From positions 4,522 to 68,521 of the forward strand of contig JAEEOM010000076.1 in the NCBI GenBank assembly GCA_016284265.1: 64,000 bases of DNA. The letters run 5' to 3'. This DNA comes from Bacteroidales bacterium. GTDB lineage: Bacteria > Bacteroidota > Bacteroidia > Bacteroidales > UBA932. The notes beneath the pieces are model-generated. The model did not search any database, was not told the origin of the DNA, and saw only the letters and a list, made by a program, of their open reading frames with translations. Of this stretch, positions 1 to 61,078 are shown in pieces; position 1 is the stretch's first letter; every line of letters begins with the position of its first letter. A program made the translations under genes and the position numbers.

Positions 1-467
1 GCCGCCGACTGCGTGACCGTCACACCGGAGGCCTTGCCGGCCAGGGAGGTAATCATATTGGCAGCGCGGTTGCCGGCGATTTCCTCGGAGGAAACCACCT
101 GTTCGGCATACGTCAGGGATTTCGCCGCACGGGTGATACCGAGGGCGGAAACAACGGCCTCTTCAAGGACGTTGTCGCTGTTCATGGCGACGTCCACGAC
201 ACTTCTTCCGGCTACTTCGACAATGACTTCGTCATAACCGACCGAAGAGAAGCGGAGGGATGCGTTGGCAGGAACGTTGATTGCATAACGGCCGTCTGCG
301 TCTGCCGAGACAGCATTGCCTGTGCCGTTCTGAATCACCGTCACGAAGGAGACAGGATCTCCTGTCTTGGCATCTTTCACCTGGCCGGTCACCCGCGTGT
401 TCTGTGCAAAAGCGACGGAACCCATGAGCAGGCAGGTCAGGATGAGAATGAATCGGTTGATTTTCAT
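1..467 (-). CDS. SusC/RagA-type TonB-dependent outer-membrane receptor, N-terminal part (gene continues beyond window start)
   Basis: Absent from the ORF track because it is open at the window edge. The reverse complement from ATG 467-465 reads MKINRFILILTCLLMGSVAFAQNTRVTGQVKDAKTGDPVSFVTVIQ... (signal peptide plus carboxypeptidase-regulatory-like domain), then ...ALGITRAAKSLTYAEQ, typical of a SusC plug start. Confidence 0.8.
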   Translation of the reverse strand, partial: MKINRFILILTCLLMGSVAFAQNTRVTGQVKDAKTGDPVSFVTVIQNGTGNAVSADADGRYAINVPANASLRFSSVGYDEVIVEVAGRSVVDVAMNSDNVLEEAVVSALGITRAAKSLTYAEQVVSSEEIAGNRAANMITSLAGKASGVTVTQSA

Positions 468-497: not shown

Positions 498-1814
498 TTA
501 TTGTGTCTTGTAATCAATGGCGAGCAACTGCCCGAAATGGGCGCGCAGGTCTTTCCATTTATAATAAGGTCCTTTCCAGGGCTTGAGGGAAGGGATGACG
601 ACCTCTTTCTCGTTGCGGAGAATCTTGACAATGATGTCGTCCTTGCGGTTCTTGTAGAAAATCATCTGAAGGTTGGAGCCCATGGGCATCTCGCTGAAAC
701 AGTTCCAGCCCAGGGCGGGGCCGTCAGCCATGTGCCCGGGAACCTCACAGCCTTCCATCCGCAGGAACGTCCAGAGAGACATCAGTCCGGAATCATGTCC
801 GAAACGGAGGTCGGCAGCCACGCCGCTGCCCTCGGCCAGGGCCCGGTCGGCTTTCTCCACGATGTCGACCAGGACGCCCTGGCCGGTCATGTCGTAGCGG
901 TTGAGGTTCTCGATCGTATTGGCGAAGTAGTTGTAATTGGCGGCATCATCGACGTACCAGAGCGCATAAAGCTCGTCTTCCGTGAAATGGCGATAGATGT
1001 CCGGTACGTTGTAATCCAGATTCAGGCACTGGCAGATCTGGCCGGCGTAGTAGATGTAGTAGATAAAGTCGCGTACTTTGAAAGGGCCCAGATGGAGGCT
1101 GGCATCCCAGGGATCGGTGAACCAAGCGTTCATGATCCGGGCCGGATCGAGCCGGGCCACCAGCATCGAATCGACGATCGTATCGTGCGATTCGTTGAGA
1201 GGGATGGTCGATCCGGGCGCAAGATAGCGGAGAAACCGGTCGCCGGCATAAACGGTGTAATGGAGTTCCGGTGCGTTTCCGGAGAGTGCCAGCGTGAAAT
1301 TGGCCAGGCTCTGGATGCAGCGCTGGCTGGGACTGGACACGGCCACTACTTCTTTGCGGTCATTCTGGTGGAACAGGGAGGGGACTCTATCGTACAGCCG
1401 CCGGGAGATACCCTGGTGTTCCAGACCGCCGCGCGTGGTCAGGCATCCCGCCTGGCCTACATGAAACAGGGCAAGGCTGTCGAGTTCATCCCGAAGCGCC
1501 TTCCCTTCTTCTGTCAGGAATCCCAGCATTCCGAGCGTGTCGAGAATTGTAGAAACGCGTGTGACGGCACGCATGGAAGTATGGTAACGGCTGCCATGAC
1601 GGCCGTAATGGCTGAGGTAAAAAGGCTCGTATCCATCCGGAGCCGGGGTATCGACCATTGCCTCGGGCGGTTCGTAACTGTGGTGGATGTTGGAAAGCCG
1701 TTCCGGATTCTCCCTGAGCAAGGTCCGGGCGTCCTGGGCGTTCAGCGGAAATCCGCCCACCAGCAAGGAAACCAGTGACAGACACAGGAAAACGGAGAAG
1801 AAGGACTGCTTCAT
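498..1814 (-). CDS. secreted histidine acid phosphatase (branch-2 histidine phosphatase, Minpp/phytase-like)
   Basis: 438 aa with a signal peptide. Catalytic RHGxR motif (SHYGRHGSRYH) near the N-terminus and a C-terminal HD motif (RFGHDSGL). Confidence 0.8.
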   Translation of the reverse strand: MKQSFFSVFLCLSLVSLLVGGFPLNAQDARTLLRENPERLSNIHHSYEPPEAMVDTPAPDGYEPFYLSHYGRHGSRYHTSMRAVTRVSTILDTLGMLGFLTEEGKALRDELDSLALFHVGQAGCLTTRGGLEHQGISRRLYDRVPSLFHQNDRKEVVAVSSPSQRCIQSLANFTLALSGNAPELHYTVYAGDRFLRYLAPGSTIPLNESHDTIVDSMLVARLDPARIMNAWFTDPWDASLHLGPFKVRDFIYYIYYAGQICQCLNLDYNVPDIYRHFTEDELYALWYVDDAANYNYFANTIENLNRYDMTGQGVLVDIVEKADRALAEGSGVAADLRFGHDSGLMSLWTFLRMEGCEVPGHMADGPALGWNCFSEMPMGSNLQMIFYKNRKDDIIVKILRNEKEVVIPSLKPWKGPYYKWKDLRAHFGQLLAIDYKTQ

Positions 1815-1893: not shown

Positions 1894-3054
1894 TCAATTT
1901 GCGTTTTTCTGATTTCGCCATTCGGAGGGTGTGCACCCTTTCAACTCCTTGAAACGGCGGCAGATGCTCTTGGCATCGTCTTCTCCCAACTTGTAGGCAA
2001 TCTCTTGGATGGAGTCGTTGGTCTCGAGCAGCAGTTCCGAAAAGCGCCCGATCCGCTGCTGGGAGATATACTGGTAGATCGACTCGCCGATCACGTTTTT
2101 GAACCGGACCTCGAGAAGCCTGCGCGAGAGCGGGACCTGTTCCAATACATCGCTGACAGAGAGTTTTTTGTCGAGGTTCTGCCGGATATACTGCAATGCA
2201 GCCAGCACCTCCTTGTCGGAGGTGGCGTAGGCAGAAGTGGAAACGCGGTGGACGAGTCGTTTGGGCTGGAGCGTGATATCGGCACCCTTAAAAAAAGGAT
2301 CGCGAATCATACGGACGGCCATCTGTGCCGTCTCGAAGCCGCCCTGTTCGATATCCACCATGATGCTGGACAGGGTGGGATGGGAGAGGGTACAGATCAC
2401 TTCGTCATTGTCGACGCCGATGACCGACAGTTCGGAAGGAATCTTCACGCCTGCCGAGTTGCAGGCTTCGATCAGCGCGTTGCCCTGATTGTCGTCGCAT
2501 GCCATGACGGCTACCGGTTTGGGCAAGTCTAGCAGCCATTTCCGGAGTTCGGCCGCCTCGTAGTACCACAGGTTGTCGATCACCTGCTTGTCGTAGAGGT
2601 AGAAATGGTCGCCGAATCCTGCCTCTTCGATCCGCTGCCGGAATCCGTCGCAACGCTCCTCCGACCAACAGACGTCCTTGTAGCCGAAAAAGGCGAAATT
2701 GCGGAATCCCTTGTGGAGGTAAAGGTCGGCGGCCATGCGCCCGGTCTTGATGTAATCGCCCGTGATGTTGGGGATGGAAGTGAACTTGGACTTGTAGTCC
2801 TGCGCCAGGGCCACGATGCCGTTGCGGCGGAAAAGCTCCACCTTGTCGGTCTCTTCGAATTGTCCGATCACCACGTCGGCACCCCATTTCTTCGCCCACT
2901 TGATGACGCCCTTGAGTCCCAGTTTCCGTTTGTAGGCAGGAGGCATGCGGCAGACCACCCATTGCTCGGTCTGATTGGAATAACGGATGATGCCCCGCAG
3001 CAGCGCATAGGCGAAAGATTCGGTAAAATCGGTTATAAAGAGGAGTCTGACCAT
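1894..3054 (-). CDS. XylR-like transcriptional regulator (LacI-type sugar-binding fold plus C-terminal AraC HTH)
   Basis: 386 aa. N-terminal periplasmic-binding-protein-like domain (VAVMACDDNQGNALIEAC, VIGVDNDE). C-terminal AraC-type HTH (ESIYQYISQQRIGRFSELL...CRRFKELKGCTPSEWR). Overlaps the upstream gene end by 22 nt. Confidence 0.8.
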   Translation of the reverse strand: MVRLLFITDFTESFAYALLRGIIRYSNQTEQWVVCRMPPAYKRKLGLKGVIKWAKKWGADVVIGQFEETDKVELFRRNGIVALAQDYKSKFTSIPNITGDYIKTGRMAADLYLHKGFRNFAFFGYKDVCWSEERCDGFRQRIEEAGFGDHFYLYDKQVIDNLWYYEAAELRKWLLDLPKPVAVMACDDNQGNALIEACNSAGVKIPSELSVIGVDNDEVICTLSHPTLSSIMVDIEQGGFETAQMAVRMIRDPFFKGADITLQPKRLVHRVSTSAYATSDKEVLAALQYIRQNLDKKLSVSDVLEQVPLSRRLLEVRFKNVIGESIYQYISQQRIGRFSELLLETNDSIQEIAYKLGEDDAKSICRRFKELKGCTPSEWRNQKNAN

Positions 3055-4505
3055 CTGAATCCAACTTTTGTTCTTTCATCGCTGTTATACAGGCGTACGG
3101 CGGCATTGCCGTCGAAGTCGGCTTTTCCTGAAACGAATTCAGGCACGTTGTAAGACCTTACGCTGCTGTCGTAAAAGTCACGCGGGCTCTTCTGGGGCAG
3201 CATGAAGGGTTTGGCACACACACCGTCCGGATCGATGTGGCAGATATAGGCCCGGGTGTAGAGCCCGTCGTCCCTCCGGCTGCCGAAAACAAACCAGCGG
3301 GAGTTGGAACTCCAGCTGTGGGCGCTCTCTGCATCGTCGCTGTTTACTCCGTCGAGCGGTCGGGTCTTCCCGGTCTGGAGGTCGAGGAGCCACAGGTCCG
3401 ATTCGTGGTGCCAGGCACCAAAACACCCGTAGTCCGCCAGTTGATACAGGATCCATCGTCCGTCATAGGACGGTTTTGGGAAGGAGATGCTCTTGCCCAT
3501 CGCTTCGGCGAAGATCACGGTATCTACCTTATGGCCGATGTCGCCGGTCTCGGGGTTGAAGTCCACGCGGCAGAGATTGTACCGGACTTCCGTCACGTTT
3601 CGGGGGATTTCCTGTTCCGTGCAGGATGTAAAGTAGATGGAGCGGCCATCGGCCGAGAAGACCGGCATATTCTCGTTCACGCCGTCCACCTTCACTTCGG
3701 GCGAAGTGATCAGCACGTTTTCCTCGGTGTCGTACACCTGCAGGTCCGACTTGAGGTCGTACACCTCCAGGACTTTGTCCGGGCGCTGGTGGAAACCCTG
3801 CCGGTTCACATTGGTGGAGTAAGCGATGAATCTTCCGTCGGGATGCCAGCAAGGATAGACGCAGGCGGCCAGCGTAGAGTCTGTCTTCATGTCATACGCA
3901 ACCGTCTTGCCGTTTTTGCGGATAAACGTTGCACCTCTTTCCCCCCTGACATGCAGGCTGAAGTACTCGGGCCGGGTGCGATTGAAGGAGTGGCAGTTCA
4001 CGCAACCGTCGAAGTTCCTGCCTCCGATCAGGCAGACCTCGTCGAAGGACGACAAATCCCGTTCATAGATACCGATGTGGGAGAAGGACTGGTAACCCGG
4101 GGCGATGAGCCGGTAGGCGATGCCGTAGTCGATGGCGTCTTCGCTGACATAAATATCAAAAGGCTCGAACCGTTTCCATGTTCCGTCGATCTTCCCACAC
4201 GCCGTGACCTTGACCGTCCCGCCTCGGGATGCGTCCAACAGCCGGTGCCAGGCCTTGATGGGAAAATTGGCGCTTTTTCCGGATACCTTGAGGGTTTTTC
4301 CGTCCGCTCCTTCTGCGATGGCGATGACCTTCGTGGCTCCATTGATGTCAAAGTCGAGCGGGGCGATGGTGGCAGGAACGGTTACGCCGATGTAATCGGG
4401 ATAGATGTCCGGTTGCAGACCTGCTTTCGTGAATCTGTCCGGATTGCCGGTACACGAGAGGACTGCGAGCAACAGCGGCAAGGATAGGATGATGCTCTTT
4501 TTCAT
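3033..4505 (-). CDS. beta-propeller (PD40/TolB-like) lipoprotein with conserved CxxCH motif, copy A
   Basis: The ORF was trimmed to MKKSIILSLPLLLAVLSC (lipobox), ATG at 4505. That ATG forms ATGA with the upstream stop at 4502. CVNCH lies at residues 168-172. Propeller-like repeats follow (YSTN, FSADGRSIYF, PSYDGRWILY, WSSNSRWFVFGSRRDD). Paralogue of 6223-7689. Confidence 0.75.
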   Translation of the reverse strand: MKKSIILSLPLLLAVLSCTGNPDRFTKAGLQPDIYPDYIGVTVPATIAPLDFDINGATKVIAIAEGADGKTLKVSGKSANFPIKAWHRLLDASRGGTVKVTACGKIDGTWKRFEPFDIYVSEDAIDYGIAYRLIAPGYQSFSHIGIYERDLSSFDEVCLIGGRNFDGCVNCHSFNRTRPEYFSLHVRGERGATFIRKNGKTVAYDMKTDSTLAACVYPCWHPDGRFIAYSTNVNRQGFHQRPDKVLEVYDLKSDLQVYDTEENVLITSPEVKVDGVNENMPVFSADGRSIYFTSCTEQEIPRNVTEVRYNLCRVDFNPETGDIGHKVDTVIFAEAMGKSISFPKPSYDGRWILYQLADYGCFGAWHHESDLWLLDLQTGKTRPLDGVNSDDAESAHSWSSNSRWFVFGSRRDDGLYTRAYICHIDPDGVCAKPFMLPQKSPRDFYDSSVRSYNVPEFVSGKADFDGNAAVRLYNSDERTKVGFRWSDSSL

Positions 4506-6211
4506 TGTCCCAGTCGATAGAAATAATAATACCAGTAAGTATTGCCGAACCGCTTGGCGAGGGTTTCGGCCGGAGTTCCGCCGCCGCGCTCCTGCATGAA
4601 CAGGCTGAATGAAGTTACGACGGCCGGATTGATGAAAGCGGGAACATTTTCCAGGCTTTGGGTCGTGTTGGCGAAGTCCAGCAGGAAAGCCTCCTGATAA
4701 CAGCGCGGTACGCCGCCCGAATAGGCTTCGAAGGGACAATAGTTCACGAAACCTTTCAGGTTCTTGTCGAGAAGGTTCCAGGCAAGCAGGTATTCCAGCG
4801 CCATGTGGTTTGCGGGATTCTCCTGGACCAGATAGCCAAGCATGGTCTCCATAGCCTGCCGGTTGAAAAGGAAGTCGTGGTCGTGGAGCCTGACACTGCG
4901 GAGGTATCCATATCCCGGATCCGCGTCGATGGCCTCATCGTTGCCGCAAAGCGCCATTTTGGATTTGGCCCAGCTCCGGTAAAACAGTGTTTTTTCGAGA
5001 GCCTTCAGATATTTTTCAGCCACTTGGTAGTTACGGTTGACCAGGTTGGTTTCCGCCAGCCGCTTGTAGGCCCGGACACTCTTCTGGAAGTCGGGAATCA
5101 GTTCCTGTGCCTCGAAGGTATAACGCTGGCTGGCGTTGACCATGCCGAGCTGGAAATAGGCTTCAGAAGGAATCAGCGGATGGAGGTAGTCGTTGGTGTA
5201 TTTCGGAAGCAGGCCGTCCGGACCGTTTTGGTAGAATTCAAACATCCTGTGGGCGTTTCCCGTCTTGACAAGCGCCAGGTTTACGCTGGCCATTTCAAAG
5301 GGTTTCTGGGGATTGTCTTTCCGGGCCTCCGCGAGGATGGCGTTCCACTGGAACCTTCGTGTGAGGAAGTCGTATTTGAAGTAAGTCTCTTTTTCGCCGT
5401 CATAGGCCAGGACGACGCCCAGTGCGCCGAGGACCAGGATCGCACCGAAGGCTCCGATCCCTTCCCAAACCTTGCCTTGCCGCTTGATGCAGGGAGCAAT
5501 CATCAGGACCAGCGCTTCTGCCGCAGCGGCTGCCCAGGGCCACACCGGCAGATGATGGTGGAACCGGTAGTAATTGATTCCGTACAGGAGCCGGTAGTAA
5601 GGATATCCCATCGTCTTGTGCAGACAAACGACACACAGGGCGAAAACGATCCCCATCATAAGGCCAGGCAACAGTTTCCGCTCGTGGGCCAGGAAGGCGA
5701 TGATAAACAGGATCGAAAGCGACCCCAGCAGAAAATAGAGCAGGGCGGTCGCGACGACGGCCACGATGTTCCGAAGAACGGCGGGTCGGATGCGGATGAC
5801 GGCCAGGGCGCAGAGCAGCGACAGCAGAATTGCCACCAGTGTGCCGGGCATGGCATCGGCATCGCAGAAGAAGACCAGCAGCAGGACCGGCGGGATAAAA
5901 GTCAAGGCGTATCCTGTGGGTGACAGGTTTTTTGCAAGCGCCGCCGTAGAAAGCTGTATCGCGGCGAGCAGTAATGCAAGGATGAAGCTGCCCGCCGCCG
6001 AGTAGTAGAAGAACTGCGTCAGGAACCGGCCGCACCAATCGGCAAGTCCGCCGGGAACCGCCAAAGTTTCCGCCAGATATCGCCAGGAGAACTGGAAGAG
6101 CTGGAACTGCTCCTGGTTGTAAACATGGTAGGGGTATGCCAACCAGAAGAAGAAGAATGTCGCCAGGGTAAACAATCCCGGGAACAAGTATCGATCGGTT
6201 TTGCTTTTCAC
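4502..6211 (-). CDS. polytopic inner-membrane protein with soluble helical (TPR-like) C-terminal half, copy A (DUF6057-like by recollection)
   Basis: 569 aa. About 8-9 hydrophobic segments in the first ~290 aa, then a soluble half (NYQVAEKYLKALEKTLFYRSWA...). Paralogue of 7693-9432 (shared PGGxAD..GRFLTQFFY, YFQLGMVN). Coupled to the downstream lipoprotein gene. Confidence 0.7.
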   Translation of the reverse strand: MKSKTDRYLFPGLFTLATFFFFWLAYPYHVYNQEQFQLFQFSWRYLAETLAVPGGLADWCGRFLTQFFYYSAAGSFILALLLAAIQLSTAALAKNLSPTGYALTFIPPVLLLVFFCDADAMPGTLVAILLSLLCALAVIRIRPAVLRNIVAVVATALLYFLLGSLSILFIIAFLAHERKLLPGLMMGIVFALCVVCLHKTMGYPYYRLLYGINYYRFHHHLPVWPWAAAAAEALVLMIAPCIKRQGKVWEGIGAFGAILVLGALGVVLAYDGEKETYFKYDFLTRRFQWNAILAEARKDNPQKPFEMASVNLALVKTGNAHRMFEFYQNGPDGLLPKYTNDYLHPLIPSEAYFQLGMVNASQRYTFEAQELIPDFQKSVRAYKRLAETNLVNRNYQVAEKYLKALEKTLFYRSWAKSKMALCGNDEAIDADPGYGYLRSVRLHDHDFLFNRQAMETMLGYLVQENPANHMALEYLLAWNLLDKNLKGFVNYCPFEAYSGGVPRCYQEAFLLDFANTTQSLENVPAFINPAVVTSFSLFMQERGGGTPAETLAKRFGNTYWYYYFYRLGQ

Positions 6212-6222
6212 GCTTCAGGCAT

Positions 6223-7689
6223 TTAGGGATTCGTACTATATTGGAACTGCGCTTTCTTTCCCCGCTTGAGCAGGCGCCAGGCCTTGTGGCTGTTCAGGGG
6301 CACGGGCTCCGTCACGAATTCGGGGATGTTGAAACTCCGCAGCATGGTGTCGTAGTATTCGCGGGGATTCTTCTGGGGCAGCATGAAAGGTTTGGCGGGT
6401 ACGCCGTCCGCATCGATATGGCAGAGATAGGCGCGCGTGTGGATACGGTCGTCGCGGCGGCTTCCGAAAACGAACCAGCGGCTGTTGCTGCTCCAGTTGT
6501 GGTAGCTTTCCGCAGCGTCGGGGTTGTTCACCCCCTGGAGGTCGCGTGTCTTGCCTGTTGCCAGGTCAAGCAGGAGCAAGTCCGCGTCGTTGTGCCAGAT
6601 CGTGAAGTTGCCGAACGACGAGGCGGTGTACATCAGGTATTTTCCGTCAAAAGACGGACGCGGGAACGAGACGCTGAATCCGCGCGGGGCAGCCAGGACC
6701 AGCGTATCGACCTGGTCGCCGAAACGGCCGTTTTCCGGATCGAAGGCGATGCGGCAGAGATTGTAGCGGATGGCATTCAGTTGCTTGGGGATCGCCCTGG
6801 GCTCGGCGCTGCAGAAATAGAGCGTCCGGCCGTCCGGGGAGAAAGCCGGGAAGGTTTCCCAGGCGCCGTCGCTTTTCAGCTGGGGGCACGAAAGGAGCCG
6901 GTTGTTCCGGATATCGTACACCACGATGTCGGATGCGTAGTCAAACACTTCCAGAACATTCTCGGCCCGCTGGTAGAACCCCTGCCGGGTGGTGTTGGTA
7001 GAGTAGGCGATGTAGTCGCCGGAAGGATGCCAGTACGGGTACACGCAACTCGAAATCGTGGAGTCGGTCTTGGTGTTGAACGCCTTCAGTTTCGCGTGCT
7101 GCCGGATCAGGGTGGCCCCGTTTGCGCCCCGCACGTGCAGGCTCAGGTCTTTGGGATCGCACTGGTTGAAGGAATGGCAGTTGAGGCAGCCGTTGACCTC
7201 CTCGGTGCTGATGAGTTCTTTCTGTCGGAAAGAGGACAGATCTCTCTCGTAAATGCCGAGTTTCCCCATCCCTTCATAGGAGGGCAGGATGAGCCGGTAG
7301 GCCAGCCCGTAGTCGATGGTGTCCTCGCTGACATAGATGTGGAACGGGGCGTCCTGAAACCACTGTCCATCGACGAACTCGTAGGTATCGACCAGAATCG
7401 AAGCGCCCGTGTTGGCGCGGAGCAGTTTTCGCCAGGCTCTTTGGGGAAAACGGGCCATGGAGCCGCGGACGTACAGGACGGTGCCGTCATCGCCTGTGAG
7501 CGTCACGGCGAGGCGCTCGGCCTTGTCGATGGAGAAGTTGAGCGGCGCAATGGTGGCGGGGACCGTCACGTCCCGGTAGTCCGGAAAAATACGGGGCGAC
7601 CTTCCGGAGTAAACGGAATCACTCACGTCGCGTCCGCAGGAAAGGACCGTGAGCAAAGTCAGCACCAACAAGGGAAATCTTGCACGCAT
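6223..7689 (-). CDS. beta-propeller (PD40/TolB-like) lipoprotein with conserved CxxCH motif, copy B
   Basis: 488 aa with lipobox MRARFPLLVLTLLTVLSC. CLNCH at residues 168-172, the same position as copy A. Long identical blocks with copy A (YVSED.IDYG.AYRLI, GIYERDLSSF, WSSNSRWFVFGSRRDD). Confidence 0.75.
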   Translation of the reverse strand: MRARFPLLVLTLLTVLSCGRDVSDSVYSGRSPRIFPDYRDVTVPATIAPLNFSIDKAERLAVTLTGDDGTVLYVRGSMARFPQRAWRKLLRANTGASILVDTYEFVDGQWFQDAPFHIYVSEDTIDYGLAYRLILPSYEGMGKLGIYERDLSSFRQKELISTEEVNGCLNCHSFNQCDPKDLSLHVRGANGATLIRQHAKLKAFNTKTDSTISSCVYPYWHPSGDYIAYSTNTTRQGFYQRAENVLEVFDYASDIVVYDIRNNRLLSCPQLKSDGAWETFPAFSPDGRTLYFCSAEPRAIPKQLNAIRYNLCRIAFDPENGRFGDQVDTLVLAAPRGFSVSFPRPSFDGKYLMYTASSFGNFTIWHNDADLLLLDLATGKTRDLQGVNNPDAAESYHNWSSNSRWFVFGSRRDDRIHTRAYLCHIDADGVPAKPFMLPQKNPREYYDTMLRSFNIPEFVTEPVPLNSHKAWRLLKRGKKAQFQYSTNP

Positions 7690-7692
7690 GGT

Positions 7693-9432
7693 TTATTTGA
7701 AAAAATAATAAAACCAGTAAGTGTCTCCATATCGCTGTTGCATCGTGGCGAGGGGGACGTTGGCGTTGAAATCGCGGGAGAAGTCCTCCAAGTGCGCGGC
7801 ATTGGCCGGCGTGATGAAGTCCGGGAGCTCTTCAGACGAGAATCTCGACTGGTTCCAGTCGAGCAGGAACCCTTCCTGCCAGGCTTTGGGAACAGCCGTA
7901 GTAAACCCTTCGAAAGGGCAGGTCGCCACAAAAGCGCCCAGGTCTTTTTGGAGAAGGTACCACGCGAGCAGGTAATTCAGGGCCGTGAGGTTGCCCGGAT
8001 GCTCAGACAGCAGCTGCCGGAGCGAGACATCGGCATGGTTGTAGTCGAAAATGTAGTCTTCGCCTTTGTACCGCTCGAAGCGCTTCTCGGTATATTCGTT
8101 GCGGACGAAGGGTCCGGCGGGATCTTTCAGCAGCGCGAGCTGCTCCTTCGCCCACTTCCGGTAGAACAGAGTATGGCTGAGCGATGTCAGGTATTTCCGG
8201 GCCATTTCAAAATTTTCGTTGACCAGACTGATTTCCGCCAGCAATTTGAAGACGGCAGCGCTGTTCTGGTAGTCCGGAATTACATTGAGGGCCTCGAAGC
8301 AGTGCCGTCTTGCGTTGTTCACCATACCCAACTGGTAAAAAATTTCCGCGGTGGAAAGTCCGTCGTGGTGGGGTGTGTTCTCGTTGGGCAAGAGTGTCTC
8401 GGGACCGTCCTGCAGGAAATCGAACATGTGGCTTCCCAAGTGGCCTGTCTTACAGAGCGCGAGATTGAGACAAGCGGTTTCCCCATAGGTTTTCGGGGCC
8501 TTGCGGGTAGCTTCGGTCACGATGCGGTTCCAGGCCCGCTTGCCTGCCAGGATATTGTATTTCAAGCTTTGTTCGTCGTTCCGGCTGCTGCAGAGCAAGA
8601 CAGCCGGGACGGCCAGGACGAAGAGGATACCGTAAGTGATCGGCCAGGCTGGGACAGTTCGGCCAGCGGTCCGGGATTCGGCGAAGGCGATGGCGGCCGC
8701 GGTAACCAGTGCCGCAATCCAGGGCCAGACAGGCATCAGGATGTGTACCTTGTAGTAGTTGAGTCCGTAAAAAAGCCTTCCGAGCGGATAGGGGAGAATC
8801 ATCCAGGCGACCAGCGGACAGAGCAGTGCCAACACGAGAATCGTGCCGCCGAAAACCTTGTTCCGCTCCTTGACGGCCAGGATGGCGGCAAAGACGATGG
8901 AGAAACTGCCCAGCAGCAGGTAGAGGACAGGAATCAGGACGAGTGCGACGATGCGACGGGATTTGGTCCCGGCCATGCGGGAGACCGCCAGGGCTGCGGC
9001 GAGCATGAGGGAGAAGGACGTCAGCAGGCTGACGGTCGGGAAACGGTAGCACATGACCATCCCCAGCAGGATGGAAGGAACGAAGGACAGCGAGCCGGTC
9101 AGCGCGTCCTTCCGGGAGCAGAGCAACCAGACTAGCCAGCGGATCAGGACCAGCAGCCCGGCCAGGATGAAGGCGCCGGACCAGGCTTGGTAAAAGAACT
9201 GGGTCAGGAAACGGCCGAGATAATCGGCGAATCCACCCGGACGGGTGACGATTTCCGCAAAATAAGTCAAAGTTCCCTCAAAAAGCTGCAGTTGTTCCAG
9301 GTTGAGGGTGTGAAATCCGTAAGGGACGGAAAAATAGAGCGTCACGGAAGCAAATAGCAGCAGGGAGGCTGACCAGTCTATGACTCTTTGCAGGCGGTTC
9401 ATCTCTGATGCGGTTGACAACAACATATTCAC
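7693..9432 (-). CDS. polytopic inner-membrane protein with soluble helical C-terminal half, copy B (DUF6057-like by recollection)
   Basis: 579 aa. The track start at 9432 is GTG; an ATG two codons in (9426) is an alternative. Same architecture and motifs as 4502-6211. 3-nt gap to the downstream lipoprotein gene. Confidence 0.7.
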   Translation of the reverse strand: MNMLLSTASEMNRLQRVIDWSASLLLFASVTLYFSVPYGFHTLNLEQLQLFEGTLTYFAEIVTRPGGFADYLGRFLTQFFYQAWSGAFILAGLLVLIRWLVWLLCSRKDALTGSLSFVPSILLGMVMCYRFPTVSLLTSFSLMLAAALAVSRMAGTKSRRIVALVLIPVLYLLLGSFSIVFAAILAVKERNKVFGGTILVLALLCPLVAWMILPYPLGRLFYGLNYYKVHILMPVWPWIAALVTAAAIAFAESRTAGRTVPAWPITYGILFVLAVPAVLLCSSRNDEQSLKYNILAGKRAWNRIVTEATRKAPKTYGETACLNLALCKTGHLGSHMFDFLQDGPETLLPNENTPHHDGLSTAEIFYQLGMVNNARRHCFEALNVIPDYQNSAAVFKLLAEISLVNENFEMARKYLTSLSHTLFYRKWAKEQLALLKDPAGPFVRNEYTEKRFERYKGEDYIFDYNHADVSLRQLLSEHPGNLTALNYLLAWYLLQKDLGAFVATCPFEGFTTAVPKAWQEGFLLDWNQSRFSSEELPDFITPANAAHLEDFSRDFNANVPLATMQQRYGDTYWFYYFFK

Positions 9433-9436: not shown

Positions 9437-9444
9437 CAAAAATA
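9437..9444 (-). promoter_or_regulatory. candidate Bacteroidota -7 promoter box (TATTTTTG) for the 9432->3033 gene array
   Basis: The reverse complement of 9437-9444 is TATTTTTG, matching TAnnTTTG. It lies only a few nt upstream of the GTG/ATG start, implying a very short leader. Confidence 0.3.
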
Positions 9445-9586: not shown

Positions 9587-10327
9587 ATGCTATTGTATCC
9601 CAATGCAAAGATAAACCTGGGCCTCAATGTCATACGGAAGCGTTCCGACGGGTATCATGACATTGAGACCCTTTTTTATCCGGTTCCTGATCTGTGTGAT
9701 ATCCTGGAGATCGTGCATGCCGATGCGTTCCGGATGCAGGTGTACGGGGCGCAGGTCGAAGGAGAAAACCTCTGTGAAAGGGCCTGGAAGCTCATGCATG
9801 ACCGGTTCGGGATTCCTCCCGTGGCCATTCATCTTTACAAGAAGATTCCGATGGGCGCGGGCCTGGGCGGCGGTTCTTCCGATGCCGCCTTTACCCTGAA
9901 AGGGCTCAATACCTTCTTCAAGATCGACTTGCCTGACGAGGAGTTGTGTGCCCTGGCCGCTACGTTGGGCAGCGACTGTGCCTTTTTCATCTTCAACCGT
10001 CCGATGCTGGCCCGTGGCCGGGGAGAAATCCTCACGCCACTCGATTTTACCCTCGGAGACCATGTTTTGCGCATCTATCCGCAGGAAGAATTCGTTTCGA
10101 CCCGGGAAGCGTATGCGTCGCTCACGCCTCGGGAACCAGTGCGTCACATTGATTCGATCGTCAAGCTGCCGGTTGCCGCATGGCGGGGGCTGCTGGTCAA
10201 CGATTTTGAGGAGACCGTCTTTGCGCGGCACCCGCGTCTGGCGGAAGTCCGCGATGCGCTGTATGCCGGAGGCGCGCTCTATGCTGCCATGTCGGGCAGC
10301 GGATCAGCGCTGTATGCAATATACTAA
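9587..10327 (+). CDS. ispE: 4-diphosphocytidyl-2-C-methyl-D-erythritol kinase
   Basis: 246 aa. N-terminus YPNAKINLGLNVIRKRSDGYHDIETLF and GHMP-kinase motif IPMGAGLGGGSSDAA. Confidence 0.9.
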   Translation: MLLYPNAKINLGLNVIRKRSDGYHDIETLFYPVPDLCDILEIVHADAFRMQVYGAQVEGENLCERAWKLMHDRFGIPPVAIHLYKKIPMGAGLGGGSSDAAFTLKGLNTFFKIDLPDEELCALAATLGSDCAFFIFNRPMLARGRGEILTPLDFTLGDHVLRIYPQEEFVSTREAYASLTPREPVRHIDSIVKLPVAAWRGLLVNDFEETVFARHPRLAEVRDALYAGGALYAAMSGSGSALYAIY

Positions 10328-11122
10328 CAGTTGCTCGAGCGTGGCATCCTTGAGGATGATCCGTTTATCTTCGTCCAGCAAATAAAGAGAGGGAATGGCG
10401 CGGAGCCAGTAGATGGTGTCGCTCTTGAGCACCAGGTCGGGATCGTAGCCGCAGATCCAGTCGGCAGGATAATTGGGCAGATAGTCGAGCCATTCCTGCA
10501 CATTTTCGTCCGGATAGATATTGACCACCAGCAGGTCGCCTGTTCCGATCCTCGCCTGGACCGGTTGGCTTTGCGAAAGGGTTTCGGTGATTTCCTTGCA
10601 GTTGGGGCAGCCCGGGTTGCTGAAGAACAGGATCGTCCGTTTCGGTTTCCGGGCGTCGAGCGTGGCGTACAGGGTGGTGCGCCGGCCCTTGGGTGTGACA
10701 TATTCGAAGTCGTTGGCTGGCTGGCCGGGCCGGTTGAGCAGCAGGTAGGGCTTGAGCCAGGCGGCCCGCTGCTGTTGTTTTTCGGAAGCCATGGGCGAGG
10801 AGAGCTGGCGTTCCAGGACGGGCAGGTAGAGTTCTTCGTTGCGGTAGGGGCTATTGGGGTCAAGCAAGAACGACTCTTCCAAGGAGATGACGCGCTGCCA
10901 TTCGGCACTGTCGCGTTCCGCAGCGGTCAGCACGCTGTCCTGCAAGCGGAGTGCTTCTTCGGCAGGTGCTGTCAGCAGCCTTTGCACATATTGTTCAAAT
11001 TGCACGCGTTGCGTGGCCTGCGACTGGGAACCGTATTCCGAGAGAGAGGGCCCTTTCTCAGGTTTGCAGCCGGAGAGCAAGGTAAAAACGGCTGCCAGGA
11101 CAAGCAAGTGACATTTTGTCAT
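10304..11122 (-). CDS. thioredoxin-fold (TlpA-like) lipoprotein with N-terminal helical domain
   Basis: The ORF was trimmed to MTKCHLLVLAAVFTLLSGC (lipobox) at ATG 11122. CxxC in a thioredoxin context (ILFFSNPGCPNCKEI). 24-nt convergent overlap with ispE. Confidence 0.75.
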   Translation of the reverse strand: MTKCHLLVLAAVFTLLSGCKPEKGPSLSEYGSQSQATQRVQFEQYVQRLLTAPAEEALRLQDSVLTAAERDSAEWQRVISLEESFLLDPNSPYRNEELYLPVLERQLSSPMASEKQQQRAAWLKPYLLLNRPGQPANDFEYVTPKGRRTTLYATLDARKPKRTILFFSNPGCPNCKEITETLSQSQPVQARIGTGDLLVVNIYPDENVQEWLDYLPNYPADWICGYDPDLVLKSDTIYWLRAIPSLYLLDEDKRIILKDATLEQLLVYCIQR

Positions 11123-31380: not shown

Positions 31381-34350
31381 TTATTCCTTCACGCAGCGGA
31401 CGCTGTTGGCATTCGTGCGGTAAACCGTTTTCCTGCCGTACGGAACGAAATCTGTGTAGTTCAACACACCGGCCGTTTCTGCAAACTCATCCCGGAGCAG
31501 GATACCGTCCGAAGCCCAGATGCGGATATGATAGCCGGAGTTCTGTTCCAACGCGCCATTACCTCGGGCTTCTTGATAGGAAGAGTTGCCTGAGTTTCTC
31601 CAGTAGGCTTGCGTCAAATGATAGCCGGTACTCGGGAACCAACCGTACGCCGTTTCCACCCCAACTTGGTATGTACTTGTATAGCTGTACTGCGTGATGG
31701 ATTCGTACCTGATGGAATTCTCTGTGAAAGCAGAAAGGAATGTCGCATCCCAGTCAGACGTGACAGGGACCTTCCATCCGGGAGGACAGGGGTCGAAGAT
31801 TGTTTTGCTCGCAGCCCACAAATCGTCGGTCATCCCGGAAGCCCAGCTGTTGTTATCAAAGGAGGAACCGTCATAATACTCATAATGGGCCTCGTAAGGT
31901 TTGCTGATCATCGTTGCCAGAGAATACGCCGCTCCCGCTACTACTCCCGCCCCTGTTTCTGACTGACCGAGGACGGCGGGTAAATAGGCCGTCGTGTAAT
32001 TATTGGAAGAAACATATCCAGACCCCCGTCTCACCACGTTATGGAAGGGATCTTTACGTCCCCATTGATACAGCATGCCGAATTCTACGGTGCAGGAGGG
32101 ATCGAAAGAATTGGACAATGCGCCCAGATTCCGGTCCATGAATACCGCGCCGCCGGGATAAGTCTTTTTCAGTCCTTCGATGTTGTCGTTCGTAAACCAG
32201 AGATGCCAGCTCCACAAGATGGTGTTGGAGGCATCCTTGATCGCCACAAGGGCGTTGCCTTTGTGGAAAGAATCTCCCGTTGAGAAGAAAACATATCCGT
32301 CCTTATAGCCTACCCGATGGATCATCTCCCCGGAAACCGGCGCAGTTGAAGTTCCGTAGGTGGCCCAAACCAGCGCGGCTCCGGCAATGCTGGCCGCATC
32401 GGTCGTCTTGCTGATGCCGGCAAGGTCTGCAGCGCCGTTGCCCTTGACCGTTGCCCGGAACTTATAGTCACCGGTTGCGGGAACAATATAACAGTTGGCC
32501 GTTGCCGCTGAACTCAGGTCCGTATAACCGGACAAATCCAGGCTGGACATATCTTCGACGGGCCGGATCGTGTAACCCGATCTCGTGTAATTGTCTACAT
32601 GGCTTGTGCTGAAGTTGCTGCCCCCATACCAGCCCCAAGCATGATTCCGGTCCAAGCCGGTACTTGTCCAATAATAACAGGAACCCGGATTGCCGTACTC
32701 AAAGTCCCCTCGGCAGTTGCCAAGGAATCCGCCGCCGGGCAAGCTGGCGCTCGATTGCCTGACAATGTCCATCTCATCTTTGCTTGGCACTTTCCATCCG
32801 GCCGGGCAGGGATCGTAAATGGTCTTCTGACCGTTCCACCACATCCCCGGAGTATATTCAGACGCTGTTTGCCAATAGTGTTGACTCCAACCATAAGGAT
32901 AAGTCGTAGGGTGGGCTATACTGTAGGCAACTGTCATGCCTTCGGTATCAAAGTTCACAATGCTGAACGCTGTCATCCGGTCGGGGTAATAGCCGGAGGG
33001 CGTATAACTGCCGTTGTAACATCCGGGGAATGGATCTTTTCTTCCCCATTCATAGGCACATCCGCGGTATGGAACACTACCGACACCCAATGCGCCCAGA
33101 TTCCGGTCCAGGATGGTAATATCCCCATATTCGACAACGCCCGGGGTATCAGTAGACCAGATCATCCAGCTCCAGAGAACTTCATCATATTCCTTGTCAT
33201 AGACATGGGCGGTCCCGCCGTTTCCATCCTTGAAGACAGCCACATAGGCGTCGCCCGCTGTGAACGTGTCGGGTGTCCGGAAATAAACATAACCGTCTGC
33301 ATAATAGACTTCGTACTCGTTGTCATACTTGATGGCCTGGCCGCGGTTGGCGAGTTCCCAAAGCACCGTTACGCCGGAAATGTCGCTTGTGCTGATCGGT
33401 GTGGCGGTCGTGCCCGTGACAGGGTCGAGGCCGCCGTTGCCCTTGACCGTAGCCTTGAATTTGTAGGTGCCGGCGTTGGAGACAATGTAGGTGTTCGCCG
33501 TGGCCTTTGCGCTCAGGTCCGTCGCGTCCATCTCCAGGCCGTTGAACGATAGCGAGATATCCGTCATGGCGCTGCGTTCCACGACGATGGCCTTGTTGGC
33601 CGTGCGCGTCTGCTTTCCGCCGTCCGTCGTGACGACGGTGATCTTCAGGTTGCTGTAACTCGCGGCCGGTACCGCCAGATAGAAGGCCGTGGCGCTGGTA
33701 CCGATGGCCGTTCCCGCCGTGCCGCAGTCGAGCGTCACGCCCGCCGTCGTGCCGGAAGGGATGACGGCTGCGTTGTCCGAAATCGTGAAGGTCCCGCTCA
33801 TGCCCTGATTGGCTGACAGGACGATCTTCCGGACTTTCCGGTTGCTGTCGTTGGTGGTTATGTTCAGCCGGACGATACCGCAGAGGTTCTTGAACTTGAG
33901 ACTCTCGTCATTGCTTTCGGCGTACATCGGCGACTGGCCGATGTTGCCGGCCACGTAGGTTTGTGTGGCGGGAAGCGTCAGTGTGCCGTTGTTGTAGAGC
34001 GTTTCAGGATAGTAGGCCTTGTAAGGTGCCGTAGTGGATTCAGCGCCGGACACAAACGTGAAATCGGCCTTGACCGCCGTGCTCGTCGTTGAATAGACGC
34101 CTACGTTCGGCGTCGATGCAGCGTCAACGATCTTGATCTTGTCGCCGCTCTGCCAGTTGACCACATAGCCGTCGGTGTCGTTGCCCGAGAGTTCGGTCTT
34201 CGTGGCGGGACTTTCCGTGGTGGCCGTGAAATGTTTTGCAGCGGAGGTTCCCGAATCGGGCTGATCCACCGGCATCAGCGGGTCCTGGCAGGAGAGGCAG
34301 GCCGCCAGCACGCAAAGGGTTCCGAAGAACCAGGCAAAAAACTTCTTCAT
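31381..34350 (-). CDS. large surface lipoprotein: fimbrillin-like N-domain plus two tandem Ig-like/FISUMP-like modules
   Basis: 989 aa with a lipobox region (LAACLSC). The internal duplication has shared blocks ATAN.YIV...G.YKF.ATVKGNG, ILWSW..W, DRNLGAL, WGRKDPF and DPCP.GWKVP. The C-terminus ends NSVRCVKE, like Fibrobacter-succinogenes-major-paralogous (FISUMP) domains. Confidence 0.75.
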   Translation of the reverse strand: MKKFFAWFFGTLCVLAACLSCQDPLMPVDQPDSGTSAAKHFTATTESPATKTELSGNDTDGYVVNWQSGDKIKIVDAASTPNVGVYSTTSTAVKADFTFVSGAESTTAPYKAYYPETLYNNGTLTLPATQTYVAGNIGQSPMYAESNDESLKFKNLCGIVRLNITTNDSNRKVRKIVLSANQGMSGTFTISDNAAVIPSGTTAGVTLDCGTAGTAIGTSATAFYLAVPAASYSNLKITVVTTDGGKQTRTANKAIVVERSAMTDISLSFNGLEMDATDLSAKATANTYIVSNAGTYKFKATVKGNGGLDPVTGTTATPISTSDISGVTVLWELANRGQAIKYDNEYEVYYADGYVYFRTPDTFTAGDAYVAVFKDGNGGTAHVYDKEYDEVLWSWMIWSTDTPGVVEYGDITILDRNLGALGVGSVPYRGCAYEWGRKDPFPGCYNGSYTPSGYYPDRMTAFSIVNFDTEGMTVAYSIAHPTTYPYGWSQHYWQTASEYTPGMWWNGQKTIYDPCPAGWKVPSKDEMDIVRQSSASLPGGGFLGNCRGDFEYGNPGSCYYWTSTGLDRNHAWGWYGGSNFSTSHVDNYTRSGYTIRPVEDMSSLDLSGYTDLSSAATANCYIVPATGDYKFRATVKGNGAADLAGISKTTDAASIAGAALVWATYGTSTAPVSGEMIHRVGYKDGYVFFSTGDSFHKGNALVAIKDASNTILWSWHLWFTNDNIEGLKKTYPGGAVFMDRNLGALSNSFDPSCTVEFGMLYQWGRKDPFHNVVRRGSGYVSSNNYTTAYLPAVLGQSETGAGVVAGAAYSLATMISKPYEAHYEYYDGSSFDNNSWASGMTDDLWAASKTIFDPCPPGWKVPVTSDWDATFLSAFTENSIRYESITQYSYTSTYQVGVETAYGWFPSTGYHLTQAYWRNSGNSSYQEARGNGALEQNSGYHIRIWASDGILLRDEFAETAGVLNYTDFVPYGRKTVYRTNANSVRCVKE

Positions 34351-36259: not shown

Positions 36260-36466
36260 CCTTGCAAAGATAGTTGATCGTTTTGATTTCTTTGCGGATA
36301 AAGTTACCAACGGCCAGGGTAGCGCACAGTCTCATTCGATGTAATTCGCTGTGTCAAAAAGTATCTTTTTTTGACACTGTAATAAAAACTCCCGAAATAT
36401 TCGTTTTCTTGCAAAAGAATTTGCAAATTTGTGGATTAAATCGGAATTCATTAACAAATCCATACC

Positions 36467-40608: not shown

Positions 40609-41340
40609 ATGAAAAAAGGAAAGATGCTTCTTCTGGCCGGATGGCTGGTTTTGTCCTGCTGGCAGCCGGCCAAGGCGCAAGACGATTATGCCCTCTTCCG
40701 GGCTGAAGCCGGCAGTGCCTCCCTGCTCTACAGGGGGCAGCGGGCGTTTGTCCACAATCTGCTTTTCAACGGAACGTATTACTGGTCCGATCCGGGATTC
40801 CGCCCGGGATCGGTCGTGTACAACGGGAAACGCTACGACGACGTATCGCTCAACATCGATGCCGCCCGGCAGGACCTGCTGATCCGCATTCCCGGCAGCA
40901 TCATCGAAAAGGTGGTGGGAGAAAGCTATACCGAAGAATTCATGATTGCTGGAAGCCGCTATCTCAATTTGCGGTTTTTGTTCGGCGAGGAGGCTCCGGC
41001 TGGCTATTGGCGGGTGCTCCATGACGGACCGATCCGTCTCCTGCAGCAGGTTTCCAAGCGCCTGGAACCGGATCTGGACGGGCGCAAGCGTAACGAAACC
41101 GGCTATGACGGAGTTTACCGTCCCAATGTGTATCAGGTCTTTATCCAGAAGATTGACTATTGTTGTCTCTGGGAAGACGGAACCATTGTGCCGGTCCGCC
41201 GTCGCCGGGATCTTCTGAAACAGTTCGACCCGACGCTGCGGCGGGATATTCGCCGGCACGTCAAGCGGCGGGAAGGGTCCGGACTGATGAGTTTGGAAAA
41301 TTACTGCACGGAAGTCCTTCGATACGTAGAAACGCGATGA
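40609..41340 (+). CDS. hypothetical secreted protein, first gene of TonB-receptor cluster
   Basis: MKKGKMLLLAGWLVLSCWQPAKAQ signal peptide, 243 aa from ATG 40609 (alternative 40600). Its stop overlaps the receptor start (ATGA at 41337-41340). No recognised family. Confidence 0.6.
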   Translation: MKKGKMLLLAGWLVLSCWQPAKAQDDYALFRAEAGSASLLYRGQRAFVHNLLFNGTYYWSDPGFRPGSVVYNGKRYDDVSLNIDAARQDLLIRIPGSIIEKVVGESYTEEFMIAGSRYLNLRFLFGEEAPAGYWRVLHDGPIRLLQQVSKRLEPDLDGRKRNETGYDGVYRPNVYQVFIQKIDYCCLWEDGTIVPVRRRRDLLKQFDPTLRRDIRRHVKRREGSGLMSLENYCTEVLRYVETR

Positions 41341-52343: not shown

Positions 52344-52358
52344 TGTCCGTTTCCTCCC

Positions 52359-53816: not shown

Positions 53817-53819
53817 GGA

Positions 53820-60431: not shown

Positions 60432-61052
60432 ATGAAAAAGTGCCTGATTTTGATTGCGTGGATTGCGCTGCTGGCCGCTTGTACCCAGGAGACCGAGCTG
60501 AGCATCACGCCTGACATAGCGACTTTCCAGTTCGACGCCGACGGTGGATCGTTCGACGCCGTAATTTTCACAAACGGCCACTGGAAAGCGACTTGCGATG
60601 ATCCGACTATCTCGTTCGCACCCGATTCCGGAGACTTTACCGCCCCGATGCACATTGTCGTCGGTCCCAATGAGGAACGTCACACCAAAGCAATCCGAAT
60701 CTCCCTGATCTCGAAACTCGAGAATCTTTCGCGCAGCAGTAAAATCGTCATTTCACAGAAATGCAGACCGTTCATTTTCAGTGAAGAGACGCTTCTGCAG
60801 GCGCCGGCAACCGGTGGGGAAGTCCGTTTCCATGTCAATGCCAACGATTTGTGGAAAGTCGTTGAGACCACTTGCGACGGAGAGTCCGTGGCCCTGCCGG
60901 TCGATCCGCAGGCAGGCGGCCCCAACAGCGAGATGGTTACGGTCCTGATTCCGGAAAACACGACCGGCCGCATCCGCACGTTTGCCGTGAAACTGGCCCT
61001 GGCGTCCTGGCCGGAGCGTTCCGTCGTGCTGACGGTCGTCCAGGAGGCTTGA
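60432..61052 (+). CDS. lipoprotein with two BACON-like domains
   Basis: 206 aa, lipobox LLAAC. FQFDADGGSFDAVIFTNGHWKATCDD... and ...GGEVRFHVNANDLWKVVETTCDG...VVLTVVQEA. Confidence 0.65.
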   Translation: MKKCLILIAWIALLAACTQETELSITPDIATFQFDADGGSFDAVIFTNGHWKATCDDPTISFAPDSGDFTAPMHIVVGPNEERHTKAIRISLISKLENLSRSSKIVISQKCRPFIFSEETLLQAPATGGEVRFHVNANDLWKVVETTCDGESVALPVDPQAGGPNSEMVTVLIPENTTGRIRTFAVKLALASWPERSVVLTVVQEA

Positions 61053-61078
61053 TAAATAGTTATTTATATAATTCGACG

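Follow-up and report, generated by a model that had tools for sequence, protein, structure and literature searches.

What is the role of two adjacent genes that are kept together in multiple copies by gut and rumen bacteria? The question is raised by a contig of a Bacteroidales bacterium (lineage UBA932; assembly GCA_016284265.1, contig JAEEOM010000076.1), in which a polytopic membrane protein (M) and a β-propeller lipoprotein with a CxxCH motif (L) are encoded twice in succession, as M1-L1-M2-L2. The window, i.e. the whole stretch of 64,000 nucleotides (nt) analysed (positions 4,522 to 68,521 of the contig), had previously been interpreted from its letters alone. That sequence-only reading described four co-directional minus-strand genes forming two pairs, whose coordinates agree with the list of open reading frames (ORFs; Table 1). 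It knew of no described function for the pairing, and our literature search likewise found no paper describing one. Absent from it was the SusC/SusD polysaccharide utilisation locus (PUL) context of the module. We infer, with a probability of about 0.35, that M and L form a 1:1 complex facing the periplasm and accessory to SusC/SusD glycan uptake loci, in which L carries a cofactor or metal pocket and M serves as the anchor.

Pairing and glycan-locus context of the module

A survey of gene neighbourhoods, as the sequence-only reading had proposed, finds M and L to be conserved neighbours. A genome scan with one genome per species returned 515 loci with a relative of L, and the best 79 of these, examined in detail, are all from rumen and gut Bacteroidales (Prevotella and Prevotellaceae, Cryptobacteroides, Muribaculaceae, Bacteroidaceae and isolate KHT7). 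M lies immediately 5' of each L on the same strand, as judged with alignment-derived hidden Markov models (HMMs), in every one of the 79 loci where the contig permits. Usually two or three modules stand in one locus, and some genomes have a further locus elsewhere. In a sample of metagenome contigs centred on M, L follows directly 3' of 128 of the 137 M ORFs, the other nine being five at a contig end and four artefacts of the distance window used.

Pairwise identities among M proteins and among their adjacent L proteins correlate with r = 0.98 over 124 modules, compared with 0.00 ± 0.02 for shuffled partners, implying that the modules are inherited and duplicated as units with no exchange of partners, although co-divergence is also expected for any genes that stay adjacent and adjacency alone yields much of this correlation. 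The two modules of the window had been regarded as an old duplication with both copies maintained and lipoproteins identical at roughly half of their positions. BLASTP aligns M1 with M2 over 542 residues at 39% identity (E 2e-124) and L1 with L2 over 457 residues at 53%. L2 shares 55-56% identity with modules of other lineages versus 52% with L1, and M2 shares 41-43% with M of other lineages versus 38% with M1. Six related species and two near-identical contigs have orthologues of both window modules in unchanged order. A recent tandem duplication was rejected because L1 and L2 are not mutual nearest relatives; the duplication is old, with both copies kept.

To follow the spread of the family, a profile of the N-terminal domain and the CxxCH region of L was searched against 1.84 billion representatives. 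At E ≤ 1e-30 it retrieved 386 clusters (50% identity), rising to 929 at E ≤ 1e-10; almost all measure about 490 amino acids (aa) and share one layout. Species-level genomes with the module number in the hundreds and 90% clusters in the thousands, and a genome often has two to five copies. In a natural fusion (P0436), DUF6057 (HMM positions 39-421) is joined to an L without signal peptide, directly after SusD; the cluster of this fusion has a second member of 888 aa. The reverse order, L followed by a full-length M and waaA, occurs in a metagenome-assembled genome (MAG) labelled Planctomycetales. The recorded DUF6057 call there (353 aa) is truncated, the ORF (locus L094, 11615-13519) being full-length with 634 aa and beginning 25 nt past L.

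Sus-like loci are the central model for plant-glycan feeding by gut and rumen Bacteroidota, and their parts list (SusC/D, surface binding proteins, enzymes, a sensor and an MFS transporter) is generally treated as complete. Of the 79 loci, 60 have a SusD-like gene within 10 kb of the module and 43 a SusC-like gene; as a rule these genes adjoin the module and share its strand. The combination that defines a PUL, adjacent SusC/SusD genes with carbohydrate-active enzymes, is found at module loci. Glycoside hydrolases (GH) near the modules are GH5-BACON, GH9, GH26, GH130, GH94, GH3, GH43, GH31 and GH36, and GH92, GH35, hybrid two-component sensors and ROK genes are also found there. The glycan theme of these loci is plant β-linked, i.e. 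cellulose or β-glucan, xyloglucan-like glycans and mannan.

Several architectures are seen. Orthologous contigs with the full window-type locus (L083, L084) read M1-L1-M2-L2-XylR-like-His_Phos_2-SusC-SusD-GH9. In another arrangement, SusC, SusD and a surface lipoprotein precede M-L, a DUF4369 gene, a second pair with the short form of M described below, and BACON/GH5, beside a separate M-L. A third consists of short M-L, an L-PSP fusion protein, SusC and SusD, divergent from M-L. The Prevotellaceae arrangement runs SusC-SusD-small surface lipoprotein-M-L-M-L, followed by BACON, GH3, SASA/esterase, GH43 and GH31. Many human-gut metagenome assemblies hold the order L-PSP-DUF4369-M-L-M-L-GH26-GH130-MFS_2. 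The pair is also found beyond loci of these kinds: in Parabacteroides faecis, it comes after SusC-SusD-DUF3823-TPR-carbamoyltransferase and before mlaEF.

Some neighbours of the module deserve description in their own right. A cytoplasmic protein of 343-385 aa, whose C-terminal domain is L-PSP/RidA and whose N-terminal half has no assignment (L089 6393-7424, L164 1152-2309 and others), is encoded first in or next to M-L operons in 12 of the 79 genome loci and in most human-gut GH26-GH130 loci. A small lipoprotein of about 180 aa consisting of DUF4369 only stands between L and the next short M (for example L080 15743-16285) in 22 of the 79 genome loci; DUF4369 is otherwise, according to its Pfam description, an N-terminal domain of thioredoxin-like proteins. 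A type IIG restriction-modification gene (Eco57I, N6_Mtase, TaqI_C; L046 4869-8612, L058 4863-8606) separates the two M-L modules of a Prevotellaceae locus.

A regulatory role could be read from this context: the propeller of L would sense an oligosaccharide, and M would pass the signal on to a regulator in the cytoplasm, for instance the product of the XylR-like gene that overlaps L2. The hybrid two-component systems (HTCS) of PULs sense by means of β-propellers, and Reg_prop matches occur in neighbouring genes. Like these sensors, L is a periplasmic propeller in a PUL whose paralogues diverge by locus. In the window, translation of an XylR-like regulator appears to be coupled to that of L2, and 8 of the 79 loci have such a regulator next to the module. 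However, most loci have no linked regulator, and several already contain conventional ones (HTCS, XylR-like, ROK). Unlike the hybrid sensors, L has no Reg_prop or Y_Y_Y repeats and no kinase, receiver or helix-turn-helix (HTH) output; it is a lipoprotein in its own right, and its invariant pocket looks like a cofactor site. The cytoplasmic loops of M are short, the short form having only about 7 cytoplasmic residues. These minimal cytoplasmic parts, together with the HTCS, XylR-like and ROK genes present, disfavour M-L as the regulator of its locus, for which we see only a very slim chance.

The propeller lipoprotein and its putative CxxCH pocket

The small proteins had been described as lipoproteins with PD40 repeats, in line with the VLSC lipobox at Cys18 and the PD40 match. 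PD40 is the only Pfam family found in L1 and L2, at 42-44 bits against a cut-off of 20.9. The TolB equivalog TIGR02800 reaches 22.8 bits with L1 and 20.7 bits with L2 against a cut-off of 343, covering one repeat, so that L is not TolB. AlphaFold2 models were built for L2 and M2 on 48-50 homologues. The model of L2 (predicted local distance difference test score, pLDDT, 86) is all-β with about 28 strands, comprising an N-terminal β-sandwich (residues ~28-125) and a propeller (~128-460). Foldseek against PDB returned generic propellers only (acylaminoacyl and prolyl peptidase propellers, tricorn, ROS1), with TM-scores of at most 0.48. Source annotations of the homologues ("hypothetical", "PD40 domain-containing", "TolB family") are uninformative.

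A lipobox-like motif is present in 149 of 180 members of the L family. The acidic stretch after the lipidated Cys is the surface-export signal of Bacteroidota lipoproteins, and only 3 of these 149 have it. Since this signal is lacking, L is expected to stay on the periplasmic side rather than to be exposed on the surface.

The resemblance to TolB suggests another possible role, in which the TolB-like L and the helical arm of M, comparable to TolA, CpoB or TonB, would bridge the inner membrane to the cognate SusC and stabilise, gate or energise it. Such trans-envelope coupling would explain locus-specific paralogues without any contact with the glycan. As in Tol-Pal (TolB, CpoB/YbgF), a periplasmic PD40 propeller with an N-terminal domain occurs with a helical-repeat protein at the envelope. 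The modules lie directly beside SusC/SusD, their paralogues track loci, and the SusC proteins nearby have CarboxypepD_reg domains at the N-terminus, taken here as periplasmic extensions without an assigned partner. Unlike TolB, however, L is a lipoprotein with an invariant CxxCH and scores far below the equivalog cut-off. M is a polytopic DUF6057 protein rather than TolA, TolQ or TolR, and the module is multi-copy in glycan loci. Moreover, no TolQ/R- or ExbB/D-like partner is encoded nearby, modules exist without SusC/SusD in the vicinity, and coupling leaves the invariant CxxCH and the charged pocket unexplained. We consider it quite improbable.

In our favoured reading of a periplasm-facing accessory complex, L would carry a conserved pocket. 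In 180 distinct L sequences from all subfamilies, about 60 positions reach a conservation of at least 95%, many of them Arg, His, Asp or Glu. They include the N-terminal PDY..VT.P..IAP..F, W86, R132, R149, R187, Y217, H221, E247, D250, D259, H366, N388, R411, Q438 and N453. C168, C171 and H172 are each 100% conserved over the 180 sequences, and the pattern C-(V/M/I/L/F)-(N/G)-C-H is found in 170 of 170 and 125 of 125 full-length L proteins in two samples. In the window, CLNCH of L1 and CVNCH of L2 are the only CxxCH motifs among all ORFs of at least 150 aa in any frame. Since about 60 positions are conserved in L versus about 20 in M, L seems to be the functional subunit and M its partner or scaffold.

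Two other accounts of the motif were rejected. By eye, CxxCH could be taken for the WSPDG position of a degenerate PD40 blade, but hhalign gives less than 1% probability for the CxxCH segment against the four PD40 blades, which match one another at 90%. A Cys2His2 zinc site formed by C168, C171, H172 and H185 fails because one subfamily has Tyr in place of H185, which is not universally conserved. As a separate observation, one protein of 563 aa (P0391) joins the N-terminal domain of L to a class II tRNA synthetase core, most likely as a chimera of assembly or gene calling.

L, with its signal peptide and lipobox, shares with c-type cytochromes a conserved CxxCH in a protein exported to the periplasm. 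Weak, sub-threshold matches to Paired_CXXCH_1 are seen in 17 of 48 L proteins, the best at E 0.026. B. thetaiotaomicron has the System II synthase CcsBA (PMC13645880), making haem attachment feasible in the order. Covalent binding of haem c by the pocket falls a little short of an even chance, and a Cys/His metal or redox site would account for most of the remainder.

If haem is bound, the module could be read as a redox unit in its entirety. In one version, L would be a mono-haem c-type cytochrome lipoprotein, linked to menaquinone by a cofactor-less polytopic domain of M in the manner of NrfD/PsrC. In another, M would be a dedicated CcmI/NrfG-like TPR chaperone that matures L. With either, the anaerobic use of plant glycans would gain an electron-transfer step. 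The CxxCH of the exported L is invariant, the invariant Arg and His residues could hold the haem propionates and give the distal ligand, the Paired_CXXCH_1 matches and the CcsBA of Bacteroides are compatible with this, and neighbours of thiol-redox type recur (the DUF4369 lipoprotein, present in 22 of the 79 loci, and, beside the window-type locus, a DUF5106-thioredoxin gene). The label "cytochrome c biosynthesis protein" that a submitter gave to one homologue is a label and not evidence. On the other side, M lacks a quinone-site signature, a conserved His and any Pfam match to NrfD, CcsA or CcmI, short forms of M do without the polytopic domain, CxxCH is modelled as a strand, and no redox substrate is evident in these loci. 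The host organisms often require external haem, and several haem-costly paralogues per genome would be surprising in them. The comparison with CcmI and NrfG, the apocytochrome c chaperones of System I, likewise has two sides: there too a membrane-anchored periplasmic TPR-like domain stands beside an exported protein bearing CxxCH, and the relation of M to L may be a dedicated 1:1 one. However, no sequence relation of M to these chaperones is detected, most M proteins have a large polytopic domain, Bacteroides uses System II, and the β-propeller of L differs from any known cytochrome c fold. Taking both versions together, we regard a redox module as unlikely.

L also recalls the quinohaemoprotein dehydrogenases in combining a propeller, CxxCH, a carbohydrate context and invariant Arg/His residues fit for an anionic cofactor. 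Unlike in those enzymes, its CxxCH lies inside a β-rich region and not in a separate helical cytochrome domain; the GSDH and PQQ families of Pfam have no match in L even at E ≤ 1. The anaerobic hosts of the module are not expected to make PQQ (pyrroloquinoline quinone). The boldest proposal, that L is a new c-type cytochrome holding its haem inside a β-propeller lipoprotein and forming with DUF6057 a PUL-encoded periplasmic redox unit, is decidedly unlikely. If it were true, anaerobic gut and rumen Bacteroidales would carry out electron transfer on, or driven by, imported plant oligosaccharides, a function missing in all current models of Sus-like systems.

The membrane protein and the proposed complex

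The large proteins had been tentatively assigned to DUF6057, and correctly: PF19529 matches M1 at 417.8 bits (residues 20-579) and M2 at 525.2 bits (residues 9-565), against a gathering score of 29.8. The blocks that the sequence-only reading listed as shared by the paralogues (PGGxAD..GRFLTQFFY and QLGMVN in M; YVSED.IDYG.AYRLI, GIYERDLSSF and WSSNSRWFVFGSRRDD in L) are all present. No NCBIfam model matches M1 or M2, and no sequence relative of M or L was found in PDB, either by single sequence or by profile. The AlphaFold2 model of M2 (pLDDT 89) is all-helical, with a membrane part to about residue 270 followed by a helical-repeat domain. Foldseek with the whole M2 model against PDB gives 0 matches at E ≤ 1e-3, the transmembrane (TM) domain not having been searched alone. 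The soluble half had been called TPR-like. Its helical-repeat nature agrees with the 50 Foldseek matches listed for M2, all of TPR-type or other helical-repeat proteins, whereas the TPR assignment itself stays tentative, with E values of 0.05-0.5, low whole-chain TM-scores and sub-threshold Pfam TPR matches in a few M members only.

Conservation in M is sparse. Over 128 full-length sequences from all subfamilies, only about 20 positions reach at least 90%, mostly Gly, Pro and aromatic residues together with Q66, N311, S378 and D446, and these map to periplasmic loops and the helical domain rather than to the inside of TM helices. In canonical subfamilies, the first periplasmic loop forms two short helices with conserved H29, E34, Q35, D58 and R62 (PGGxADWxGRFxTQFFY); E34 and D58 are invariant in 50 canonical members but below 90% over the 128 sequences. 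The Prevotellaceae have a degenerate M, in which the PGGxAD..GRF motif is lost, preceding a canonical M. A short subfamily of about 350 aa retains HMM positions from ~230-280 to 576, i.e. one N-terminal TM helix and the helical domain, and still has L directly after it; a second subfamily is without the last ~75 residues.

The orientation of M can be approached from its loops. Family-averaged charges are positive at the N-terminus, 94-100, 140-147, 176-181 and 241-247, and negative at 27-54 and 115-122. This pattern fits an N-in, C-out topology with segment 148-175 as a hairpin that has a conserved Gly(-Pro) in mid-segment. From the loop charges, the natural M-L fusion and the short M forms, the helical domain is thus predicted to lie in the periplasm with L. 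An 8-TM topology with a cytoplasmic helical domain, as would follow from the unbroken helix 144-177 of the AlphaFold2 model, was rejected in view of the family loop charges, the conserved Gly(-Pro) and the natural fusion.

The architecture had reminded the sequence-only reading of GT-C transferases with periplasmic TPR tails, a resemblance that the analysis does not support. As a GT-C-like or other transferase using a lipid-linked donor, M would be the enzyme and L its acceptor or adaptor. M does resemble such enzymes (PMT, TMEM260/DUF2723) in its polytopic N-terminal half, outer helical-repeat C-terminal half and conserved first external loop. The canonical loop residues H29, E34, Q35, D58 and R62 lie at the membrane interface, the pairing of degenerate and canonical M in Prevotellaceae resembles enzyme/pseudo-enzyme pairs, and the homologue in the Planctomycetales-labelled MAG adjoins a Kdo transferase gene (waaA). 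However, the similarity tests were negative throughout: no GT-C enzyme is among the 50 Foldseek matches listed for M2, the PDB profile search was empty, no GT-C Pfam family appears in 50 members even at E ≤ 1, and hhalign against E. coli ArnT gives a probability of 1.5%. The loop residues are also not universal, and some paralogues have no TM domain; a transferase seems very improbable.

M could also be an importer, to whose polytopic domain L would pass captured periplasmic oligosaccharides, the short M forms being extra docking sites. A membrane protein and a periplasmic lipoprotein at 1:1 would suit this role; wherever short M occurs, the locus also encodes a longer M that has the polytopic domain, and the polar TM residues are poorly conserved, as expected if specificity diverges. 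However, M is conserved in the periplasmic loops and the helical domain and not in the TM interior, the invariant pocket of L is unlike a specificity-determining binding site, and M shows no similarity to any transporter family (Foldseek; Pfam on 50 members). An MFS_2 sugar transporter is encoded in the same or an adjacent operon, which disfavours M as the inner-membrane sugar importer, and we leave this role a slim chance.

The accessory complex that we favour would be built as follows. M would sit in the inner membrane with a cytoplasmic N-terminus, about seven TM helices and a short hairpin, and would present three conserved loops and the C-terminal helical-repeat domain to the periplasm. 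It would act mainly as membrane anchor and scaffold, its polytopic part being dispensable in some modules. L would dock on the helical domain of M, probably via its near-invariant N-terminal (I/L)(Y/F)PDYxxVT(I/V)PxxIAPxxF, and would be the working subunit. Its putative pocket comprises C168, C171, H172, four Arg, H221, Y217, E247, D250 and D259, residues unchanged between paralogues serving different glycans, and may be a cofactor or metal site, with haem c or else a Cys/His metal or redox site. Expressed in the regulon of the SusC/SusD locus, the module would act after outer-membrane import, L performing one shared step on, or in response to, the oligosaccharides that SusC brings to the periplasm, while variable surfaces would set the partner or substrate specificity of each paralogue.

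Several observations weigh against this reading, in addition to the caveat on adjacency given above. Some modules lie outside SusC/SusD loci, e.g. adjoining waaA, and on two contigs M-L stands by four FGE-sulfatase genes or after a 1224-aa TPR protein; because of such modules, a more general role in the envelope may be possible. The pocket is invariant across paralogues from loci for different glycans, and thus does not seem to be a glycan-specific binding site. As for the cofactor, L has no significant homology to any cytochrome c family in Pfam searches, and the Foldseek search of L2 against PDB returned no haem protein or domain. Haem-c sites usually lie in a helical turn, and AlphaFold2 puts CVNCHSFN in a β-strand (residues 168-175, local pLDDT 69-90).

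In the library searched, no paper was found that mentions DUF6057/PF19529, a CxxCH/PD40 propeller with PULs, or DUF4369 in a relevant context, and the study of a rumen cellulolytic PUL by Naas et al. (2014) makes no mention of proteins of this kind. We could not place a DUF6057 protein with a CxxCH propeller lipoprotein, multi-copy in glycan loci, in any described system, although the folds are common; the lack of an assignment for this unit is no proof of new chemistry. M-L is a further two-protein unit in Sus-like loci without an assigned role. If it binds haem or metal, it would bring in chemistry found in no current PUL model; if it is a scaffold to SusC, it would bear on how the transporters are coupled to the inner membrane. 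Either way, DUF6057 gains a partner, a compartment, a context and a set of residues open to testing.

The locus in the window

The coordinates of the module and its immediate neighbours are collected in Table 1.

Table 1. Features of the module locus, in positions of the window
Feature	Position	Strand	Basis and remarks
M1, DUF6057 polytopic inner-membrane protein	7693..9432	-	579 aa from GTG at 9432; PF19529 full length, E 1.2e-124
TATTTTTG, candidate promoter element just 5' of M1	9437..9444	-	matches TAnnTTTG, read from sequence
L1, lipoprotein, 488 aa, N-terminal β-sandwich and PD40 propeller	6223..7689	-	PD40 match; 53% identical to L2
L1 signal peptide and lipobox MRARFPLLVLTLLTVLSC, Cys18	7636..7689	-	sequence
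L1 CLNCH, residues 168-172	7174..7188	-	sequence; motif 100% conserved in family
M2, DUF6057 polytopic inner-membrane protein, 569 aa	4502..6211	-	GTG start; PF19529 E 3.3e-157; AlphaFold2 pLDDT 89
L2, lipoprotein, 490 aa from ATG at 4505	3033..4505	-	AlphaFold2 pLDDT 86; PD40 match
L2 signal peptide and lipobox MKKSIILSLPLLLAVLSC, Cys18	4452..4505	-	sequence
L2 CVNCH, residues 168-172	3990..4004	-	sequence
XylR-like regulator (Peripla_BP_3 sugar-binding domain and AraC HTH)	1894..3054	-	Pfam; conserved in L001-L006, L083, L084
Secreted histidine phosphatase (His_Phos_2, branch 2), between regulator and SusC	498..1814	-	Pfam
Start of SusC-like gene, cut at window edge	1..460	-	phmmer match to SusC; SusD and GH9 next in orthologous contigs

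Read from the sequence, the gene junctions are as previously described: a gap of 3 nt separates the L1 ATG from the stop codon of M1, a gap of 11 nt separates the M2 GTG from that of L1, and M2 and L2 overlap in an ATGA. The window operon has no terminator-like site at its gene junctions, and fewer such sites than shuffled sequences, so the single transcript for M1-L1-M2-L2 proposed before is plausible. The true start of M1 may be the ATG at 9402, giving 569 aa, because an orthologue is called at that length. TAnnTTTG is the Bacteroides -7 promoter consensus. The mechanical ORF of L2 extends farther upstream of the ATG at 4505. The ATG of the XylR-like gene overlaps the end of L2 by 22 nt, so that the co-directional run extends past 3033 and the regulator is probably translated from the transcript of L2. 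The histidine phosphatase is an unusual member for a GH9/SusCD locus, and its position is kept in related contigs.

A gene at 10304-11122 (-), about 900 nt upstream of M1 and likewise on the minus strand, encodes a lipoprotein that combines DUF5106 with a thioredoxin-like domain (NPGCPNC). Between it and M1 stands an ispE-like kinase gene of opposite orientation; the lipoprotein gene is a conserved neighbour in five related loci.

Other features of the window are distant from the module. A tandem array of three DUF4988 paralogues, 598, 485 and 485 aa in length and the first with Big_2 as well, occupies 50547-55277 (-), followed on the same strand, to 57889, by an Omp85-family gene and an acyltransferase. 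Two long ORFs of 989 and 1034 aa, at 31381-34350 (-) and 41301-44405 (-), have no Pfam match at E ≤ 1e-5; the latter overlaps a 948-aa ORF on the other strand, and either strand may be coding. An AraC-type HTH regulator of 578 aa with a Kelch-like N-terminal part is encoded at 34574-36310 (-), and a protein with BACON and a Fibrobacter succinogenes major domain (Fib_succ_major) at 60872-62455 (+).

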